From: a virus
Lineage: Duplodnaviria > Heunggongvirae > Uroviricota > Caudoviricetes
IMG/VR virus record: IMGVR_UViG_2778261459_000006
Strand: one strand, 5' to 3'
Length of the DNA stretch: 10,942 nucleotides
In this document: in pieces, positions 1,879 to 10,942 of the stretch
Layout of the letters: every line of letters starts with the position of its first letter
How positions within the stretch are numbered: position 1 is the stretch's first letter
Made by a program: the position numbers and the translations under genes
Notes under the pieces: model-generated
Database searches by the model: none
Told to the model about the DNA's origin: nothing
What the model saw: only the letters and a program-made list of their open reading frames with translations

Positions 1879-1933
1879 TGCCTGAACCGTAAACCAACCT
1901 ATCTCACTAATGGTTTACATGTGATGCGAAGCC

Positions 1934-1942
1934 TGTGGATAA
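1934..1942 (-). promoter_or_regulatory. DnaA box, perfect TTATCCACA consensus
   Basis: The + strand reads TGTGGATAA, the reverse complement of TTATCCACA. It lies 12 bp upstream of the iteron array. Confidence 0.6.
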
Positions 1943-1953
1943 CTCAAGATGAA

Positions 1954-2084
1954 CCATCAGTTTTGTACCCATATAAAAATCGAACCATCAGTTTTGTACC
2001 CATATACCATCAGTTTTGTACCCATATAACCATCTTTGAACCATCAGTTTTGTACCCATATACCATCAGTTTTGTACCCATATG
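1954..2084. repeat. Iteron array: five direct copies of the 22-bp unit CCATCAGTTTTGTACCCATATA; candidate plasmid-type replication origin
   Basis: Exact copies at 1954-1975, 1985-2006, 2007-2028 and 2041-2062; the copy at 2063-2084 ends in G. A truncated copy (CCATCTTTG) lies at 2030-2038. Flanked by a DnaA box upstream and an AT-rich tract downstream. Confidence 0.9.
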
Positions 2085-3072: not shown

Positions 3073-3693
3073 ATGCGCATATCAAAGCAGCAACGCCAAA
3101 TCCTCGACTATCTGGCAGAAAACGAATCAATCACAGCACGCCAGGCGGCAGATCTCGTTTATGGCGGCAACGTTACCCGCGTACAGGTCGATGCAGCCCG
3201 CCGTTCACTGATGGCGCTGGTCAGCAATGGGCTAATCATGAAACAAGGCCGCGCTTTCGTAGCTGAAAGACATATCAATCACGCTTATAGCCAGGACGTT
3301 GAAGAGTTGCGCCGTCAGATCCTTTGGGTATTCAGCAAAGAGGGGCAGGACTATCTCATTTCTGAGCGTCCAAATTACGCCGCCAAAGAGTTAACAGTAA
3401 GCGGATTGTCGTGCGCACTGGATTATCTTGTCGGTGAAGGTTGCGTTACTTACAAGCAGCTATGGCACGCCCTGAACACGCTTGTAGAAGATGGTTTACT
3501 CATTGCCACGCGTGAGAATATCGAATACTGGATAATGCCGCGTTCAGGTCGCCGCAATCATGCGCGGTATATTTCAGGCAACAAATACAGAACGCCTGAC
3601 TTTAATCCGACACAGGAAGATCGGGACCGTGCCGAAATGATGTGCAGGGAACGGGAGAAAAGATTCATGGACAAGTTGTTTTCGATGCGGTGA
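3073..3693 (+). CDS. 206-aa protein with two tandem winged-helix-like domains; candidate DNA-binding regulator or Rep-like protein
   Basis: ATG at 3073, stop TGA at 3691-3693, then a terminator. Segments QRQILDYLAENESITARQAADLV...LVSNGLIMKQGR and LSCALDYLVGEGCVTYKQLWHALNTLVEDGLLIA each look like a winged helix. Confidence 0.7.
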   Translation: MRISKQQRQILDYLAENESITARQAADLVYGGNVTRVQVDAARRSLMALVSNGLIMKQGRAFVAERHINHAYSQDVEELRRQILWVFSKEGQDYLISERPNYAAKELTVSGLSCALDYLVGEGCVTYKQLWHALNTLVEDGLLIATRENIEYWIMPRSGRRNHARYISGNKYRTPDFNPTQEDRDRAEMMCREREKRFMDKLFSMR

Positions 3694-3722: not shown

Positions 3723-3861
3723 TATCTCATTCCACGCCAGACGAACCAATTTAATCACACCTGAGCAAATGCATAGCCAGAACTTAAGGCCGTCAGAATG
3801 CGTTATATTGCGTTTAAACAGCATCAATTTTTAATTGCTTTTTGATGCGTGAATCGCAGGC

Positions 3862-3890
3862 AAAAAAAATCCCGCGAGTAGCGGCGGGAA
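3862..3890 (-). terminator. Candidate Rho-independent terminator on the minus strand
   Basis: On the minus strand a hairpin (TCCCGC / GCGGGA, 8-nt loop) is followed by a T8 run (complement of the A8 at 3862-3869). No minus-strand ORF is evident, so whatever it terminates would be non-coding or antisense. Confidence 0.45.
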
Positions 3891-4000
3891 ATAGAGACAT
3901 ATCGTTGTAGTTATTAATAGATCACATTTTGAGGCTGAGGATTTGCCTCACTAATATTATCGCGCCGTTACCTTTTAGTCGCAATTGATTGTTTGAAAGA

Positions 4001-4213: not shown

Positions 4214-4393
4214 ATGAAATCCATTACCCTGAAAGAAGTCTGCAATATTGCAGGCGTTACCCCTGAGACGTATCGGCGCTGGTTAAAAGAAAACTTGCCC
4301 GGTATCCCGTTACCATATACCCCGAAAGGGAAACATCTTCGTTTTTATGAGGACGAAGTGGTCGCCTGGATTAAAGGCCAGCGTGAGGGATAA
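4214..4393 (+). CDS. AlpA/Xis-family small HTH protein, 59 aa; absent from the ORF track
   Basis: AGGAG 8 nt upstream of ATG 4214. Translation is MKSITLKEVCNIAGVTPETYRRWLKENLPGIPLPYTPKGKHLRFYEDEVVAWIKGQREG, a paralog-like pattern of the 557..841 protein (LKEVC / MKDVC ... V-W ... W). Confidence 0.7.
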   Translation: MKSITLKEVCNIAGVTPETYRRWLKENLPGIPLPYTPKGKHLRFYEDEVVAWIKGQREG

Positions 4394-4425: not shown

Positions 4426-5001
4426 ATGAGAAATGAAATCAAATATCAACATATCAAGCGTCTGTGGTGTCTAAAAGATGGCGTTATTTTTACGAGATGG
4501 GGCAATAAGCCTGTTTCTTTCTCCTGTAAAGTAAACGGGCGCCGCTATACAACGATTAAAGTTAACGGAAAATGGCACGCAGTTCTTATTTATGAAGCTA
4601 TTTTTATGCTGTTCCATGACCGCCCAATCGCTGAAGGAAAAGAAATCCACCACAAGGACGGCGATCCAGAAAATAACGCAATTGACAATCTTGTCGAGCT
4701 AACCAGAACGCAGCACAAGAGGATTCATCAATATCAGTGCAACGACCCGCTGCGCGGTATTTGCCTGAATCAAGGCGCATGGGAATTTAAATGGTATGAC
4801 GATAACGGAATATGCCGCAGCCGACGTTTCCACAGTATTAACGAGGCAATAAACTTCCGTGCCGAAATAGAAAAACCTCGCAGAAGAGAATTACGATTGC
4901 TAGGCTTGAACTGTCGTAAAAAATATCGCGGAATTACCGCAAGCCAACTACGCAAAATAAGCCGGAAGCAAAATTCTCGCTTATGGCGCACACACATTTA
5001 A
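4426..5001 (+). CDS. HNH endonuclease with an AP2-like DNA-binding domain, 191 aa
   Basis: HNH signature IHHKDGDPENNAIDNLVELTRTQHKRIH, then an AP2-like segment RGICLNQGAWEFKWYDDNGICRSRRFHSINEAINFRAEI. AAGGGA RBS upstream. Confidence 0.85.
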   Translation: MRNEIKYQHIKRLWCLKDGVIFTRWGNKPVSFSCKVNGRRYTTIKVNGKWHAVLIYEAIFMLFHDRPIAEGKEIHHKDGDPENNAIDNLVELTRTQHKRIHQYQCNDPLRGICLNQGAWEFKWYDDNGICRSRRFHSINEAINFRAEIEKPRRRELRLLGLNCRKKYRGITASQLRKISRKQNSRLWRTHI

Positions 5002-5020: not shown

Positions 5021-5287
5021 ATGTCTACTCATTCATTAGAACGCTTTATGAATATCGCACCGAAATCAGCTGAACAGGAAGCGCGCGAACAATTTCAGCG
5101 AAAACTAGAAGCAGCAGCGCGGCACATTGTCGAGAAGATGCCGGAGCTACTAATCCCGTTGATGGAAGAGCTGGCAGCAGAGCTTCAGAAAGAGATGCCG
5201 CAAGATATGGAAGGGACGGCACTACAACGACTGCAGTTTGAAGCAAGCCGCTTACTACATCTTCCAGTAGGTGCATTTCGTAAATAA
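5021..5287 (+). CDS. Hypothetical protein, 88 aa, predicted helical
   Basis: ATG start with GGAG upstream; tightly packed between the HNH gene and the next ORF. No family recognised. Confidence 0.55.
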   Translation: MSTHSLERFMNIAPKSAEQEAREQFQRKLEAAARHIVEKMPELLIPLMEELAAELQKEMPQDMEGTALQRLQFEASRLLHLPVGAFRK

Positions 5288-5302
5288 CAGGGAGAACGAA
5301 CT

Positions 5303-5998
5303 ATGAGCAAAACACAGGAAAGAATACACGAGCTTGAGGCTAAATATAGCCGCTTGCTGACTGAGCGTGACCATGCAACTGGCGCTGATCGCTATCTTGC
5401 GGAAAAAGAACTGAAAGCTACTCGTAAGATGATCATTAAGTTGCACGGTAAAAGCATTACAGAAGAGATACAGGGCCAAATACCTGACATGGTGAAACAT
5501 GCACTTGCTGGTGTAACTGCCCAGGTAACCGAACTGCGTAAACAAGCTGGCATGAAGGTTAATGCTGACGAAAAGCCGGACGAAACGCCAGACGAAAAGC
5601 CGCGTGATGAGCGTATCGCTGAGGCTTTGCATGTGGTTAAGAGCAATCTGCTTAACATGGAAATTGATGACCTCATCGACCTTCGGGATCGTGTCCTCAA
5701 GGCGGTTGAAAGTCGTAACCAGGCAGCAGAGCAAAACAAGCTGGCAGACATGACGGTTAACGCGAACCACGTCGGAGCACCGGACGCCGCCAGTTACTTT
5801 GACCCTAATCTGCCGAAAGAGATAGCTGACTACCTCGATCCGCCGTTGCCGCCAGAAATTGAAGCGCATTTCGCCGAAACGAAAACGGTCGCAGGGGTTG
5901 ACCTGGATTCATACTTTCAGGGCAACAATGAAGCGGCAGGGATTGATTTAGACGAATATTTCCTGCCAAGCAAGCACTACAGCGTAAGTAAAGACTGA
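5303..5998 (+). CDS. Hypothetical protein, 231 aa, with acidic C-terminal repeats
   Basis: GGGAGA RBS 7 nt upstream of the ATG. Short repeats DEKPDETPDEKP and DLD(S/E)YF / YFDPNLP / YLDPPLP. Followed by a terminator. No family recognised. Confidence 0.7.
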   Translation: MSKTQERIHELEAKYSRLLTERDHATGADRYLAEKELKATRKMIIKLHGKSITEEIQGQIPDMVKHALAGVTAQVTELRKQAGMKVNADEKPDETPDEKPRDERIAEALHVVKSNLLNMEIDDLIDLRDRVLKAVESRNQAAEQNKLADMTVNANHVGAPDAASYFDPNLPKEIADYLDPPLPPEIEAHFAETKTVAGVDLDSYFQGNNEAAGIDLDEYFLPSKHYSVSKD

Positions 5999-6005
5999 GC
6001 AAACA

Positions 6006-6026
6006 GGGGCCGCAGCGCCCCTTTTC
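6006..6026 (+). terminator. Rho-independent terminator after the 231-aa gene
   Basis: Stem GGGGC / GCCCC with a 6-nt loop, followed by TTTT. Confidence 0.6.
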
Positions 6027-6045
6027 ACTTTCTGGAGATGAGATC

Positions 6046-6324
6046 ATGTCAACGTCAATTACACTTCGGATCTGTATGGGTATGGCACGCGTTATCACGA
6101 AAGAGGTCACAGATATTAAGCACAGCAGCCGGGAGCTACCATTGCGCCGCCAGCAGTTGCGGATTTTCGCCAGTTACGTTTTTGGCACGTTCGCATCACT
6201 GAAGCGCAAATTGAATGGCGGGCCGGTCAGCAATGAAGAAGCGAATTTTTTAAAAAGACTCACGATGATAGAAAAAGACCTGCACACGCAGTTAGAAAGT
6301 ATCAAGGCAGACGTAGGCGAGTAA
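6046..6324 (+). CDS. Hypothetical protein, 92 aa
   Basis: ATG at 6046 with GGAG 9 nt upstream; stop TAA at 6322-6324. No family recognised. Confidence 0.5.
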   Translation: MSTSITLRICMGMARVITKEVTDIKHSSRELPLRRQQLRIFASYVFGTFASLKRKLNGGPVSNEEANFLKRLTMIEKDLHTQLESIKADVGE

Positions 6325-6375
6325 GTTAGCGAGGTGTTAGCGAACGATAGCGGGTAGTTAGCGAACGATAACGGG
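6325..6375. repeat. Tandem direct repeats of GTTAGCGA; two extended 19-bp copies, GTTAGCGAACGATA(G/A)CGGG, at 21-bp period
   Basis: Copies at 6325-6332, 6336-6354 and 6357-6375, intergenic, immediately upstream of the tail module. Confidence 0.8.
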
Positions 6376-6458
6376 CCGTTTTTTGAAGTTAGTTTTCAAT
6401 GCTAAAACCGCCGAAATCCGCGCCATACGGGTTTTTGCACTATATGAGGGGCGCTTTT

Positions 6459-6722
6459 ATGGGGGTAATTTTCGGACAAGTACTATGCGCGCGCGAGGCA
6501 ATCATGAAGCAAGACATAGCGGAAAGGCTGGAGATACTCGAAAACCAGCGAGAAGAAGCCAGACAGATGCGCAGGGAGGCAAATAAAGAGGGCCGGAAAA
6601 AAGATGCATGGCATCTGAGACAATTCATCAACTTTACAAACCGTTGCATCCAGGAGTGCTACATGGAAGACGCAGAAAACTGGCTGGATTCCTTGCCAGA
6701 AAAGCACGGAACAGAGCGATGA
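6459..6722 (+). CDS. Hypothetical protein, 87 aa from the RBS-supported ATG at 6459 (the ORF track starts it at 6399; 6504 is another possible start)
   Basis: GAGGGG 7 nt upstream of ATG 6459. The protein is charged and helical (…IAERLEILENQREEARQMRREANKEGRKK…). Stop TGA at 6720-6722, in the same frame as the next ORF. Confidence 0.45.
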   Translation: MGVIFGQVLCAREAIMKQDIAERLEILENQREEARQMRREANKEGRKKDAWHLRQFINFTNRCIQECYMEDAENWLDSLPEKHGTER

Positions 6723-6743
6723 TTGTTAGACGAAGGGGGTTAC

Positions 6744-7184
6744 ATGCCGATGAGACACCAGGCTGTCATTGAGCAGATCAAGCGGCAGCTAAGGGAAGAA
6801 ATCAAAGAGATTAGCAAGGACGCGGCGACAGCCGCATATGAGATCGCTATCACTGCCGAAGGCTATGCGGTAGCAGATACACCGAGAGACACGGGCACAC
6901 TTATAAACGGCTATTACATCAATATTGACGAAAATCCTGATGGTGCGCACGCCACTTTAGGTAATACGGAACGCTATGCGTATTGGGTTCATGAAATGCC
7001 GGGGATACTGAAAGGTCAACCGCGCGAACATTTCGGGAAGACAAGGGAAGGCGTTGCCTTTGGTGGCGGTACTGAAAAGGGTTGCTATTGGGATCCTGAT
7101 GCAAGGCCCAAATTCCTTGAGCTTGCGCTCGATGAGCATTACGACGAGTTTATGGATATAGCACGCAAATATTTAAAGCGATGA
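6744..7184 (+). CDS. HK97 gp10-like protein (tail completion / head-tail joining family), about 146 aa
   Basis: Motifs PRDTGTL, YAYWVHE and ARPKFLELAL fit the HK97 gp10-like pattern as I recall it. The ORF-track start at 6723 is a TTG; the ATG at 6744 follows a GAAGGGGG RBS. Confidence 0.6.
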   Translation: MPMRHQAVIEQIKRQLREEIKEISKDAATAAYEIAITAEGYAVADTPRDTGTLINGYYINIDENPDGAHATLGNTERYAYWVHEMPGILKGQPREHFGKTREGVAFGGGTEKGCYWDPDARPKFLELALDEHYDEFMDIARKYLKR

Positions 7185-7193
7185 GGTGAGATC

Positions 7194-9374
7194 ATGGGTG
7201 AACAGGTCGGAAGCCTTCAGATAGATATTGACCTGAAGACAAAAAATTTATTGGTAAGCCAAAACCAGGCTGAAAACGCGCTTGATAATATTGGCAATAA
7301 AATCAGCGGTGTGGAACGCAAAACAAAGACCTTTAACACGCAGTTAACTAAAACATCTGCCGCAGTCAAAAGCAGCCTTTCCCCGGCAATTCGCAACGCA
7401 TCGTTTCAGATCGCGGATTTAGCTACCCAATTGCAGATGGGCGGTAATGCTCTGGCGGCATTTGCCGTTCAGGGCGCACAGTTATTAGCTGGCTTTGGCA
7501 CGATGGGCGCGGTAGCTGGCGCGGTGCTGGCTATAGCTGGCGCTATGGGTGGAAGCCTGGCACAAGGCGCTGATAGTGCAGCCGGATCGGTTGAGTACCT
7601 GGACAAGGCGATCACCAAACTGAACGAGGTCATAGCTGTAAATGAGCAGGGCGTGACGGTGATGACTGATAGTTACGCCAATCTTTCTAAGGTTAACGCT
7701 GAAGTAGCGAAACAGATGCGGAACATGGCTGAAATTCAGGCAATTGCAGCACTGCGTGACCTGAAAGAACAGGCAAGCCAGGCACAGGGGGAAATGTCAT
7801 CATTCTGGCGTAGCTTGCAGGGCGGTAAAGCTGACGCAGCAGCAGCAGCACAGGCACTTGATGACCTGGGAATCACGACCAACGACTATAAAGAAGCGAT
7901 CGCCACACTTAACGCCAATCAGCCGGATACACAGGCGCAGATGGCGACGCTGGCTAAATCCGTGATGTATGTTGGCGAAGAATACGATCTGACCAATCAG
8001 CAAGCCTACGAATTCATCCGGGCGCTGAATAAGGCCGCGACAACGAAAACACCGGAAGCAATGCAGGAGCTATCTGGCTTCATGCAGGTATTGCTACAGG
8101 ACACAGAAAACGGTAACGAGGCATTCAGGGAACTGGCTATCAAATTCGTTGATGCACAAACCAAAGGCGCAATGCTGGAAGACCAACTAAACCGACTGAA
8201 AGGCGCTATCAGTGACGCAGCCACAGAAGCCAGAAACGCCAATTTTACCACTATGCTCAACACCGTCGCCGCACGCCTGGCAGCCATTGAGCAAGGTTGG
8301 GAGGCAGGTGTCAGGATGCAGATGAAAGCCCAGGGCTACACTGAAGAGCAGATCGATGAATATGTGAACATGGAAACGGCGTACAGGGATGCAAAAGCCG
8401 CTTTGGACGAGAAGAACAAGGCCGACCGTGAAGCAATTGCGCTATCCAAACGCCAGGCCGCAGAAGCCGCCCGCAAGGCAAAACAGGAAGAAGCTGAAGC
8501 ACAACGCAAGGCCAAACAGTTAGCGGCGCAGAAAGAACAGGCCGGACGCTTTACGCAGCAGGTGATGACGGAATATCAAACGACCGTGGATCCGGCAACA
8601 GGCCAGGCGTTGAACCCTGCCGCACAAGTGGAAATGCAGGAGCAGCAGAAGAAAACGGCATTAGATAAATACAGGCAGTTGGGTGTTTTGGGTGAGCAGG
8701 AGTATCAGAACACGCTAACAGCCATCCAGAAAACTGCATCAATGCGCCGCCAGCAAATCATCAAAGACGAGGCTGACACGTTATTCAACAATCAGCAGCA
8801 GTTGATCGGCACATTTGGCGATTTCTTCGGTGAACTGTCTGGAGTCATAGCAGACGGCGCGGGTGAGCAAAATGCGGCATATCAAGCGCTATTTGCTGTG
8901 CAGAAGGGGTTTGTATTGGCGTCGGCAGCTTTAAGCCTTCAAAAAGCGCTGGCAGAGGCAAACGCCTTACCTTTCCCGGCTAACCTTCCGGCCTATGCGC
9001 AAGCGATGTCAGCAGGTACGCAGATCATTTCAGCTATTCGTGGAATAGCTTTCGGTGGCGGACGCTACAACGGCGGCGCGGTTGGTGCTGGCAACCTGTA
9101 CCGCGTGGGTGAACACGGTAAGCCTGAGATATTCAAGGCGAACAATGGCAGCCAGTACATGATCCCAGGTGATAACGGTCGCGTGATAAGTAATCGTGAC
9201 ATTGGCGGCGGTGGCGGCGTAACAATCAACAGCCCGATCACCATTAACACTACGAATGGCTTCAGTGATGAAGACTCAAGGCGTCTTGAGGAAGCGATGA
9301 AGCGCGTAGCTATGGGCGTTTGCAGGCAGGAGTCAACCAGACCGGGAGGAATGTTAGCCCCGCGCCGCCGTTAA
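7194..9374 (+). CDS. Phage tail tape measure protein, lambda gpH-like, 726 aa
   Basis: N-terminus MGEQVGSLQIDIDLK, then a Gly/Ala-rich hydrophobic segment (…AAFAVQGAQLLAGFGTMGAVAGAVLAIAGAMGG…), a K/A/E/Q-rich helical region and a glycine-rich C-terminus with GNLYRVGEHGKPEIF. This resembles lambda-H-family proteins by eye. Confidence 0.8.
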   Translation: MGEQVGSLQIDIDLKTKNLLVSQNQAENALDNIGNKISGVERKTKTFNTQLTKTSAAVKSSLSPAIRNASFQIADLATQLQMGGNALAAFAVQGAQLLAGFGTMGAVAGAVLAIAGAMGGSLAQGADSAAGSVEYLDKAITKLNEVIAVNEQGVTVMTDSYANLSKVNAEVAKQMRNMAEIQAIAALRDLKEQASQAQGEMSSFWRSLQGGKADAAAAAQALDDLGITTNDYKEAIATLNANQPDTQAQMATLAKSVMYVGEEYDLTNQQAYEFIRALNKAATTKTPEAMQELSGFMQVLLQDTENGNEAFRELAIKFVDAQTKGAMLEDQLNRLKGAISDAATEARNANFTTMLNTVAARLAAIEQGWEAGVRMQMKAQGYTEEQIDEYVNMETAYRDAKAALDEKNKADREAIALSKRQAAEAARKAKQEEAEAQRKAKQLAAQKEQAGRFTQQVMTEYQTTVDPATGQALNPAAQVEMQEQQKKTALDKYRQLGVLGEQEYQNTLTAIQKTASMRRQQIIKDEADTLFNNQQQLIGTFGDFFGELSGVIADGAGEQNAAYQALFAVQKGFVLASAALSLQKALAEANALPFPANLPAYAQAMSAGTQIISAIRGIAFGGGRYNGGAVGAGNLYRVGEHGKPEIFKANNGSQYMIPGDNGRVISNRDIGGGGGVTINSPITINTTNGFSDEDSRRLEEAMKRVAMGVCRQESTRPGGMLAPRRR

Positions 9375-9636
9375 CCAACTCCCACGCCAGGGGGATAGAC
9401 TGGCGGACCCTTCACGCTCCTACGCAAAAATTCCCTCACAATCGCCCTGTCAATTTTTCAGATTTCACCAGAACGCGCCTGAAACAGCCTTCCCACATCC
9501 TTGATATTCCGTACGCCCTGCTAAAAGCGTGATCTGCGACAAAAATTGTACTTTTTGCCGTTGATTCGGGGTCTGTATGGGAATAATCTCACAATCAAAG
9601 AGAGGTAAGGGTATTTGGGAAATGGAGGAAAGTATC

Positions 9637-10263
9637 ATGGCTAACGCAGCTTATATTCGTGTTTCTACTATCGCTCAGGATACATTGCGCCAACGCGAGG
9701 CTATCGCTAACACTGGCATGAAGTTTGAGAAAATCGTTGAAGAGAAAAGGTCAGGTAAAGACCTCGATCGCCCGGCACTGCGGGAGCTATGCGGCTGGTT
9801 ACGTGAAGGTGACGACCTGTACGTCGCATCAATTGACCGCCTGGGGCGCAAACTGACTGATGTAATGGGCGTGGTTGATGAACTGCGGCAGAAAGGGGTT
9901 CGGGTCCACTTTCTGAAAGAAGGGCAGATCATCGGTGGCGAGATGAACGCGGTTCAGGAGTTCTTTATTCAGCTCATGGCAGCAGCCGCGCAGATGGAAC
10001 GTAGCTTTATGCTTGAACGCCAGAAAGAGGCGAACGAAGCCAGGAGGGCGGCAGGGAAACCGGTTGGGCGTGGGCTGGCACCGAAGATTAAGCAGCAGCT
10101 GCCGTACATCCTCAAGGACATGGAACAACGCAAGGAGTCCATGAGCGACCTTTGCCGCAAATACAAAGTGGCGCGAAGCACAATGTACCGGATCCGCGAC
10201 AACGCCATTCGTGACGGGAAGCTGCCGGAAATTGTGAAGGTCAAAAAGGTCGTCATCAACTAA
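9637..10263 (+). CDS. Small serine recombinase (resolvase/invertase family), 208 aa
   Basis: N-terminal catalytic pattern AYIRVSTIAQ...SGKDLDRPALREL...GDDLYVASIDRLGRKL...GVRVHFL and a C-terminal HTH (ARSTMYRIR). GGAGGA 7 nt upstream of ATG 9637; the ORF-track start at 9577 is probably too far upstream. Confidence 0.9.
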   Translation: MANAAYIRVSTIAQDTLRQREAIANTGMKFEKIVEEKRSGKDLDRPALRELCGWLREGDDLYVASIDRLGRKLTDVMGVVDELRQKGVRVHFLKEGQIIGGEMNAVQEFFIQLMAAAAQMERSFMLERQKEANEARRAAGKPVGRGLAPKIKQQLPYILKDMEQRKESMSDLCRKYKVARSTMYRIRDNAIRDGKLPEIVKVKKVVIN

Positions 10264-10517: not shown

Positions 10518-10942
10518 ATGTATCAGCCAATGACTTTACCGGATCTGCTATTTGCCGCCGCCGACCGCGCGGGCTATGTCAACAGTAGCGGCAAACTGAA
10601 ACGCAAGGGGTTAGCTGATGCTCTCGGTATCGGTGAGCAGGCGCTTAACAGCTACATGAAAGGTAGCCGGGATGTTAGCACAGAACAACTAAATAACATG
10701 CTGACATTGCTTGGCGTGTACGGCATCGCACCATTCAAGGGCAATCAATGGATGGCGCTGGACGTGGATTATAAAGCGCGTAGCGACGAGATTGTCAGTA
10801 ACAAGATGATTGCGCTGGAACGCGATAACCAGCAAAAGGCACAGCAGATCGCAGCACTGAAAGCTGAGATTGATATGTTGAAAAACCAGTTAAGCAACAA
10901 AATTGATATTGTAGACAAACCGGTTAATCAACAAATCGAGAC
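10518..10942 (+). CDS. 5' part of the junction-spanning XRE-type HTH regulator (continues at 1..408)
   Basis: ATG at 10518; the N-terminus has an HTH pattern (GLADALGIGEQALNSYMKGSRDVSTEQL) followed by a coiled-coil-like segment. The frame runs off the window end and is in phase with 1..408. Confidence 0.7.
   Translation, partial: MYQPMTLPDLLFAAADRAGYVNSSGKLKRKGLADALGIGEQALNSYMKGSRDVSTEQLNNMLTLLGVYGIAPFKGNQWMALDVDYKARSDEIVSNKMIALERDNQQKAQQIAALKAEIDMLKNQLSNKIDIVDKPVNQQIE
10866..10942. repeat. Terminal 77-nt exact duplicate of nt 1-77; circular-contig overlap
   Basis: Direct comparison shows 77 of 77 identical, ending exactly at the window edge. Confidence 0.85.

Follow-up and report, generated by a model that had tools for sequence, protein, structure and literature searches.

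The DNA analysed here is a stretch of 10,942 nucleotides (the window), deposited as IMG/VR virus record IMGVR_UViG_2778261459_000006, in which a gene for a tail completion protein (TCP) lies directly upstream of a gene for a tape measure protein (TMP) of 726 amino acids (aa). We propose, with a probability of roughly 0.6, that the window is a phage-satellite-like Escherichia coli episome which supplies its own TMP and TCP for hybrid tails made from helper parts. An earlier reading of the letters alone (the original prediction) had described a gp10-like gene and a 726-aa TMP at 6744-9374 that were unaccompanied by tube, chaperone and baseplate genes, and had suggested a mobile element with only the length ruler and a tail completion protein, acting on the tail of a helper phage. 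Profile searches confirmed the gene pair and its isolation, the small element carrying only these two tail genes was recovered as described, and its action on a helper tail gained support, as a probable one only. The module comprises the following parts:

6744..7184, + strand: TCP of the HK97 gp10 / lambda gpZ / SPP1 gp16.1 / 80alpha gp51 type, 146 aa (PHROG 5)
7194..9374, + strand: TMP, 726 aa (phrog_1538, E 3e-100)
7194..7334, + strand: N-terminal module of the TMP (aa 1-47), which co-segregates with the TCP gene (class comparison, 13 elements)
9003..9374, + strand: C-terminal domain of the TMP (aa 604-726), phage-like, candidate tail-tip docking end (identity to the mEp013 TMP)

Besides phrog_1538 (“tail length tape measure protein”), the 726-aa product matched eight more PHROGs, six of TMPs and two of unknown function, which places it in a tail family. 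Among solved structures, chain 9occ_M (“Tail tape measure protein gp18”) matched its C-terminal part, with an E value of 9e-16. The Pfam profile TMP_2 (PF06791) scored 17.5 bits, below its cut-off of 30.2, and PF10145 is on record for close relatives of the protein. The sequence is Ala-rich (16.5% Ala) and has two hydrophobic segments (aa 86-126 and 562-583). Nine related elements encode TMPs to which it is 86-92% identical from end to end. Its gene is not flanked by tail chaperone or tail-tip genes, unlike the homologous phage TMP gene mEp013_87, which lies between the tube gene and tip genes of the M/L/K/I/J type. We thus identify the open reading frame (ORF), from its profile matches, as a TMP, with a predicted presence in virions and a predicted role in tail length.

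The upstream product matched PHROG 5 (“tail completion or Neck1”) with an E value of 7.5e-9 and scored 20.0 bits against Pfam PF04883 (HK97-gp10_like), just under the cut-off of 21.4. Relatives at 76-91% identity have PF04883 on record, and relatives at 69-99% are named “HK97 gp10 family” by NCBI. Foldseek against predicted viral structures returned “HK97 gp10”, “Type I neck protein” and “putative tail component”, and the protein fits the pattern of this fold, with a long N-terminal helix, a beta-hairpin loop and a C-terminal helix; a sequence search of the PDB returned nothing. The gene has a good ribosome-binding site and its stop codon lies 9 bp ahead of the TMP start.

The significance of this pairing comes from the cryo-electron microscopy structure of the 80alpha/SaPI1 neck (Kizziah et al., PMC11661146), in which gp51, equated there with HK97 gp10, lambda gpZ and SPP1 gp16.1, is present as a single TCP copy within the neck lumen. 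The packaged DNA is capped at its end by this protein, whose beta-hairpin joins residues 1-37 of three TMP copies in a sheet and whose contacts to the outer ring proteins are few (PMC11661146). TCP and TMP are thus the two luminal, mutually contacting components of the siphophage tail, and the “orphan” pair of the window is, by analogy with this neck, a luminal tail unit. In the phages that carry TCPs of this type the TCP and TMP genes are 3-7 kb apart, with terminator, tube and chaperone genes between them, whereas in the window they are adjacent.

The window is also complete. Positions 1-77 exactly match positions 10866-10942, and this 77-bp terminal overlap gives a circle of 10,865 bp. The window, which is the entire contig NNVN01000081.1 (assembly GCA_002485715.1, whose proteins NCBI labels Escherichia coli), is thus a closed circle and no phage fragment. 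All sizeable ORFs are on the + strand and, TCP and TMP aside, none of them matched tail tube, chaperone, terminator, tip, capsid, portal, TerL or lysis families in Pfam, PHROGs, NCBIfam or PADLOC. There is no integrase, the sole recombinase being a small serine recombinase whose protein is shared, at 97% identity, with an 8-kb plasmid of E. coli.

The element belongs to a family in E. coli. By megablast, mosaic relatives of the window occur in 262 complete E. coli genomes out of 5,426. The TMP gene was found in 72 of the 5,426, always on the chromosome. The chromosomal copies examined were islands of ~11-12 kb, located beside intZ between eutB and eutA (the site of the K-12 element CPZ-55), with one exception that carried another tyrosine integrase and was located at ychJ; all were bounded by intact eut or ychJ flanks. 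The order of genes in the islands was integrase, helix-turn-helix (HTH) protein, in some cases an HNH gene, small ORFs, a TerS-like gene (phrog_1482 / PF20901), an ORF of ~130 aa, in some cases the TCP, then the TMP and regulators. At least five more TMP-bearing contigs, of 10.3-12.5 kb, were circular, with terminal overlaps of 77 bp (L090), 141 bp (L092), 127 bp (L096 and L097) and 30 bp (L098). L098 is the relative closest to the window; it has no HNH gene, and the place of the window's unique segment is taken in it by a TerS-like gene and a gene of 129 aa. The TMP module was thus recovered on at least three back-ends, namely two tyrosine integrases at different chromosomal sites and the small serine recombinase of the circular forms. 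Genes of the DUF5906 primase type were present only in the relatives L090 and L098.

CPZ-55 itself (L099; MG1655 2558691-2565480; 6.8 kb) is a member of the family that has neither TMP nor TCP, and YffM, YffO (TerS-like), YffP, YffQ and YffS have homologues across the family, those of YffP, YffQ and YffS being found in circular relatives too. YffO is 44-52% identical to the TerS-like proteins of most relatives and 35-40% identical to those of three, and the slot taken elsewhere by the TMP, between yffP and yffQ, is empty in K-12. Two E. coli plasmids of 8-9 kb are TMP-less members with the serine recombinase, and tblastn of the TMP against plasmids returned no small TMP-bearing plasmid. The E. 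coli family has an episomal form and natural variants with and without TMP and with and without TCP, and one of its members is present in the common strain ATCC 8739. In some relatives a gene for a cyclophilin-type peptidyl-prolyl isomerase lies just upstream of the TerS-like gene (L097, 3384-3881); this is of interest because DNA injection by the phage HK97 is reported to depend on its TMP and a periplasmic chaperone.

Both tail genes are under purifying selection. Over the central 550 TMP codons, comparison of the window with three relatives gave ratios of non-synonymous to synonymous divergence (dN/dS) of 0.05-0.06 at dS 0.44-0.6, and the TCP gene gave 0.10-0.20. Among the TMP clusters listed (at least 120, at 85-100% identity; every named source is E. 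coli or Escherichia), 118 of 120 encode proteins of 725-728 aa and the other two 722 and 689 aa; recombination within the gene keeps its frame and length. Since low dN/dS is combined with intact TMP ORFs in more than 120 clusters, and the module occurs on three back-ends, a decaying relic is ruled out, and with it the degraded prophage that the original prediction had offered as an alternative.

The TMP gene is a mosaic whose alleles diverge strongly in the middle of the protein: allele A (window) encodes 726 aa and allele B (L006) 729 aa, at 45% identity, and further alleles encode 732 aa (allele C, L005) and 788 aa (L092). A C-terminal domain of ~125 aa is common to all these alleles and to phage TMPs. 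It is 63% identical in protein to that of the phage mEp013, part of it 84% identical in DNA, and 108 phage records match it at 60-80% identity. Over its last 324 nucleotides the window gene matches the otherwise unrelated allele C of the island L005 at 98.8% identity, a sign of recent exchange; along its whole length, the allele C protein is 52% identical to the mEp013 TMP of 735 aa.

At the other end of the protein, residues 1-47 form two classes, and the class tracks the presence of the TCP gene in 13 of 13 elements. Class I was found in all seven TCP-bearing elements (window, L006, L089, L090, L091, L092, L098), six of which were compared pairwise and are 72-91% identical to one another, the seventh (L098) having the first 60 residues of the window. 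Class II was found in all six elements that have no TCP (L001, L002, L005, L094, L096, L097); the N-termini of L001, L002 and L005 are 51-66% identical to that of the mEp013 TMP and only 21-36% to class I, and those of L094, L096 and L097 are nearly identical to that of L001. Residues 48-120 group otherwise, with window, L001 and L002 being 93-99% identical there. In the complete genomes, all seven of the listed TMP matches that align from nucleotide 1 have a gp10-like gene, and ~51 listed matches that align only from nucleotides 139-157 have none. At TMP codon ~47, the boundary of recombination falls together with the part of the 80alpha TMP that binds the TCP (residues 1-37). Its placement inside the TMP gene is suggestive of TCP-TMP pairing, not proof of it, and the phage-like N-terminus of TCP-less elements is what would be expected if their TMP had to pair with the TCP of the helper.

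The likeness to phages points to the candidate helpers, which would be the mEp013/mEp021 “mEp immI” siphophages; the comparison with lambda gpH made in the original prediction turned out not to be relevant, as the related phages belong to this group and not to lambda. The mEp013 TMP is the most similar phage TMP, and the TCP of the window is 48% identical to mEp013_81, whose gene lies just ahead of mEp013_82 (named tail termination protein by RefSeq in homologous prophages) and of the major tail protein gene. Gene 71 of mEp013, just upstream of a 1.5-kb putative TerL gene, encodes a protein with 29-38% identity to the TerS-like protein of the islands, and a 78-aa island protein is 79% identical to mEp013_03. 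Sensitive blastn found no cos-like sequence in common with mEp013, only two coding matches, and in megablast of the window against phage and plasmid collections the matches were limited to 164 bp of phage sequence and to the region of the recombinase. TMP matches in IMG/VR were full-size phages only, at 27-68% identity over the best segment, and shared with the window the TCP and TMP alone; none of the small TMP-matching contigs there was circular. Five units of the window amount to 54.3 kb and five units of L090 to 54.9 kb, close to the 53.0-54.7 kb of mEp-group genomes. This match would fit the packaging of multimers into full-size helper heads and is so far a numerical coincidence.

In the favoured reading, the element would replicate by itself with its Rep-like gene, iterons and resolvase, and would leave the cell only in the particle of another phage, because genes for capsid, tube, tip and lysis are missing from it. 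During helper growth the satellite TMP, with the TCP where present, would take the place of the helper copies, giving a hybrid tail in which the tube, terminator and tip of the helper surround a satellite core. The phage-like C-terminus of the TMP would dock in the helper tail tip, and its length, near that of the phage protein, would let the helper tube polymerise to its normal length. At the neck, TCP and TMP N-terminus would meet the DNA end, the first ~47 TMP residues being matched to the element's own TCP. Benefits may include escape from blocks aimed at the TMP (Rta, Tab), escape from exclusion at DNA entry, and damage to the helper tail. That such a satellite could live as a plasmid is proposed because relatives have packaging-type genes (TerS-like, HNH) next to an autonomous replicon and no virion shell.

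A more specific version of this reading, which we put forward tentatively, is that of an undescribed E. coli family of satellite plasmids and islands, with CPZ-55 as a TMP-less member, in many of which the tail lumen would be private: these would bring their own TMP, and a subset a co-adapted TCP that pairs with the first ~47 TMP residues, forming an orthogonal plug of DNA end, TCP and TMP in a tail that is otherwise stolen. By means of this plug, satellite DNA could be joined selectively to tails of the satellite type or, alternatively, satellite particles could evade exclusion or defence systems directed at the helper TMP.

Several observations weigh against the satellite reading. No TerS-like gene was detectable in the window, the only TMP-bearing member examined that has none, and no ORF of the window matched a tail assembly chaperone family, of which the PLE satellites (elements that resemble phage-inducible chromosomal islands) of Vibrio cholerae have a member. 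The association between TCP and TMP N-terminus is confounded, the two DNA segments being adjacent so that linkage alone could yield the pattern. TMP-less relatives exist (CPZ-55 of K-12 and the two plasmids), and the TMP is therefore an add-on and not a requirement of the family. Protein identity to the candidate helper is just 30-63%, and the TMP search of IMG/VR viral contigs returned no close relative of the window. Finally, mEp013-like prophages were present in 35 complete genomes and in none of the 60 TMP-island genomes listed, an uninformative result given that ~0.5 would be expected by chance.

Another explanation of the same genes is interference, in which satellite TMP and TCP would co-assemble with helper tail proteins and poison them, cutting helper yield and protecting the host population, with an outcome akin to that of Tab, Tai and Rta, which block tail assembly. 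Blockade at this stage is common among mobile elements (PMC10884400; PMC11364771; Rta of PLE11), and a TMP with phage-like termini around a different core would suit it. However, a pure poison has no obvious need for a length held at 725-728 aa, nor for a matched private pair of TCP and TMP N-terminus; moreover, the satellite TMP is a structural component of PLE virions (PMC11838301), and PADLOC recognised no defence system in the window. We thus regard interference as rather unlikely, although the two roles are not mutually exclusive.

Remodelling of helper tails into distinct particles of another length, on which the original prediction had laid stress, is improbable. Tail length does follow TMP length (Katsura 1987, cited in PMC11838301), PLE tails are 10 nm shorter (PMC11838301), tails of the mycobacterial EPIP satellites are longer (bioRxiv 10.64898/2025.12.02.691453), and the relative L092 has a 788-aa TMP. 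The TMPs of the window and of more than 100 close relatives nevertheless differ little in length from the 735-aa mEp013 protein: at 1.5 Å per residue, 726 and 735 aa correspond to ~109 and 110 nm, a predicted difference of ~1.4 nm, which is under one tube ring.

About equally improbable, or slightly more so, is an autonomous small plasmid or island in which the TMP- and gp10-like genes are phage debris, functionless or with a role outside virions. The 726-aa protein is labelled “hypothetical” everywhere at NCBI, the literature treats CPZ-55 as a cryptic prophage, and the window shows plasmid features; debris would not be expected to maintain dN/dS of 0.05-0.2 at saturating synonymous divergence, to be free of truncated alleles in the more than 100 TMP clusters listed, to recombine with TMP frame and length preserved, or to adjoin packaging-type genes (TerS-like, HNH) in relatives. 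Derivation of the contig from a complete phage or prophage as a mere piece, with the other tail genes elsewhere, for which nothing speaks beyond the presence of two tail genes, is very improbable in view of the closed sequence, the five independent circular relatives of similar size and the integrated copies between intact flanks.

The closest functional parallel to the satellite reading is found in the PLEs, whose own TMP replaces that of the phage ICP1 and is required for transduction (PMC12987554; PMC11838301); it was found in PLE virions, from which the phage TMP is excluded (PMC11838301; PMC12987554). As in the window, a small element that has no capsid or tube genes carries its own TMP, which differs from that of the helper, is of similar length and is used in its stead. 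We detected no sequence relationship with the window, however, and PLEs differ in that their helper is a myophage and in that they have a tail assembly chaperone and, in some cases, a baseplate hub, and neither TCP nor plasmid form. Furthermore, the role of the PLE protein was shown by experiment, whereas that of the window protein is deduced from its genes. The identification of the window as a PLE was thus rejected. The EPIP satellites of Mycolicibacterium (bioRxiv 10.64898/2025.12.02.691453) resemble it in their TerS, head-tail or neck proteins, serine recombinase, HTH protein and TMP, but are listed with capsid and scaffold genes, have longer tails and live in another host phylum, and no co-variation of TCP with TMP is described for them. 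CPZ-55 shares insertion site and integrase with most chromosomal relatives, and has the Yff homologues; at 6.8 kb it has no TMP and no TCP, whereas the window has no integrase and is circular.

Phage-inducible chromosomal islands (PICIs) of Enterobacteria and their cf-PICI forms are similar in size, in their single-direction operons, in a putative AlpA-type regulator, in a putative replication module with iterons and in packaging genes (HNH; TerS-like in relatives), and some cf-PICIs have putative tmp genes, noted bioinformatically (PMC12987554). The definition of a PICI fits the window in part only, as it has no integrase (relatives have tyrosine integrases), and pri-rep, Rpp and other PICI-type families had no match in the Pfam, PHROGs and NCBIfam scans. 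A cf-PICI was rejected for want of capsid, portal, protease or head-tail connector matches (Pfam, PHROGs), and a P4-like satellite for want of psu, sid, delta and alpha primase matches (PHROGs, Pfam). The window also shows features of a small theta-type plasmid, with its circle, a Rep-like ORF whose initiator role is putative, iterons, and a resolvase close to that of the 8-kb plasmid. No description of CPZ-55-type elements as satellites, or of E. coli satellites with a TMP, was found in the literature searched. The idea of a satellite TMP is already known, being established for PLEs, proposed for EPIPs and noted in some cf-PICIs; new are the family itself, its occurrence in plasmid form, the addition of a TCP and the way in which TCP and TMP N-terminus vary together.

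The remaining features of the circle are as follows:

557-841, + strand: AlpA/Xis-like HTH protein (weak HTH_17 match; excisionase-regulator families phrog_2790/66)
831-1841, + strand: Rep-like protein, 336 aa, with putative initiator function (homologues near the equivalent position in circular L092 and L097)
1929..2083, no strand: five to six 22-bp iterons (ACCATCAGTTTTGTACCCATAT), candidate replication origin (repeat analysis)
3728..3990, no strand: non-coding block conserved family-wide, candidate packaging site or minus-strand small RNA (71-94% conserved)
4214..4393, + strand: small HTH_17/excisionase-type DNA-binding protein at the head of a late-looking operon (Pfam on record; NCBIfam “excise”, E 4e-6)
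4426..5001, + strand: HNH endonuclease (PF13392, E 1e-10; PADLOC homing-endonuclease models match)
5021..6324, + strand: three conserved family ORFs of 88, 231 and 92 aa, the last a YffM homologue (93-100% identical in L096 and L098)
6399..6722, + strand: unique ORF in the slot where relatives have a TerS-like and a ~130-aa gene (locus comparison)
9577..10263, + strand: small serine recombinase of resolvase/invertase type (PF00239, E 1e-31)
10518..10942, + strand: 5' part of a 251-aa HTH regulator gene that runs over the circle junction to 408 (junction reading frame)
10866..10942, no strand: exact 77-bp repeat of 1-77, the assembly overlap of a circular molecule (end comparison)

The regulator read across the junction is 94% identical to an island gene (L001, 15623-16378) and has a 46-bp segment duplicated inside (25-70 and 118-163; also 10890-10935), with the repeated peptide LSNKxDIVDKPVNQQ. 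The 336-aa Rep-like ORF had no family match. After the iterons come a winged-helix protein, the conserved non-coding block, the small HTH protein, which is kept in all relatives, and the HNH endonuclease; downstream of the HNH gene are four small ORFs that have no assignment, the TCP, the TMP and the small serine recombinase. Between the iterons and the ORF at 3073, a stretch of 1.2 kb free of ORFs contains a 106-nucleotide direct repeat (2526-2631 and 2836-2941, 78% identical) and two 23-nucleotide repeats at 2671-2735, and parts of it recur in islands and in plasmids, with 92% identity along 91 bp of pRHB34-C15_2.

The non-coding block at 3728-3990 (~270 bp) is 71-94% conserved in all members, integrated or circular, despite mosaic flanking genes. 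On the minus strand it has a terminator (3889->3870 plus T8), in which one pair has changed in a compensatory way in L006, and a promoter-like site with a conserved GATAAT; a further hairpin has a variable loop. It may encode a small RNA of ~95 nucleotides (compare the CI RNA of P4 and SviR of PLE) or be a packaging site. The Rfam scan of the window gave no match, in this block or elsewhere, and the tRNA scan found none.

Only a 33-aa remnant of the HNH gene is present in L096 and L098, relatives that are otherwise 92-98% identical in DNA over the shared segments, a pattern in keeping with a homing endonuclease that is gained and lost. The three ORFs that follow it had no family match in the Pfam, PHROGs and NCBIfam scans, the 92-aa ORF (6046-6324) being 38% identical to YffM of K-12. 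The 231-aa ORF (5303-5998) is 96% identical in L096 and L098; its N-terminal half is coiled-coil and its acidic tail carries four copies of a D-x-(Y/D)-(F/L) motif (SYFDPNLP, DYLDPPLP, DSYFQGN, DEYFLPS). It could be a scaffold-like or capsid-directed factor. The unique segment of ~400 bp at 6334-6732 stands in for ~975 bp of L098 (the TerS-like and 129-aa genes), and its ORF had no homologue in any fetched locus and no match in PHROGs or NCBIfam.

Satellites have long been thought to steal whole tails, and in the literature found, use of their own TMP in stolen tails was shown experimentally only for PLEs. If the satellite reading is true, the family described here would be a second, unrelated case, in E. 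coli, and would show private tail cores to be a general satellite strategy. It would also offer a tractable system for the roles of TMP and TCP in assembly and DNA delivery, in which nature has already supplied, by the swap of the N-terminus, a test of the contact between TCP and TMP in the 80alpha neck structure, and the “cryptic prophage” CPZ-55 of K-12 would be recast as a relative of satellites.

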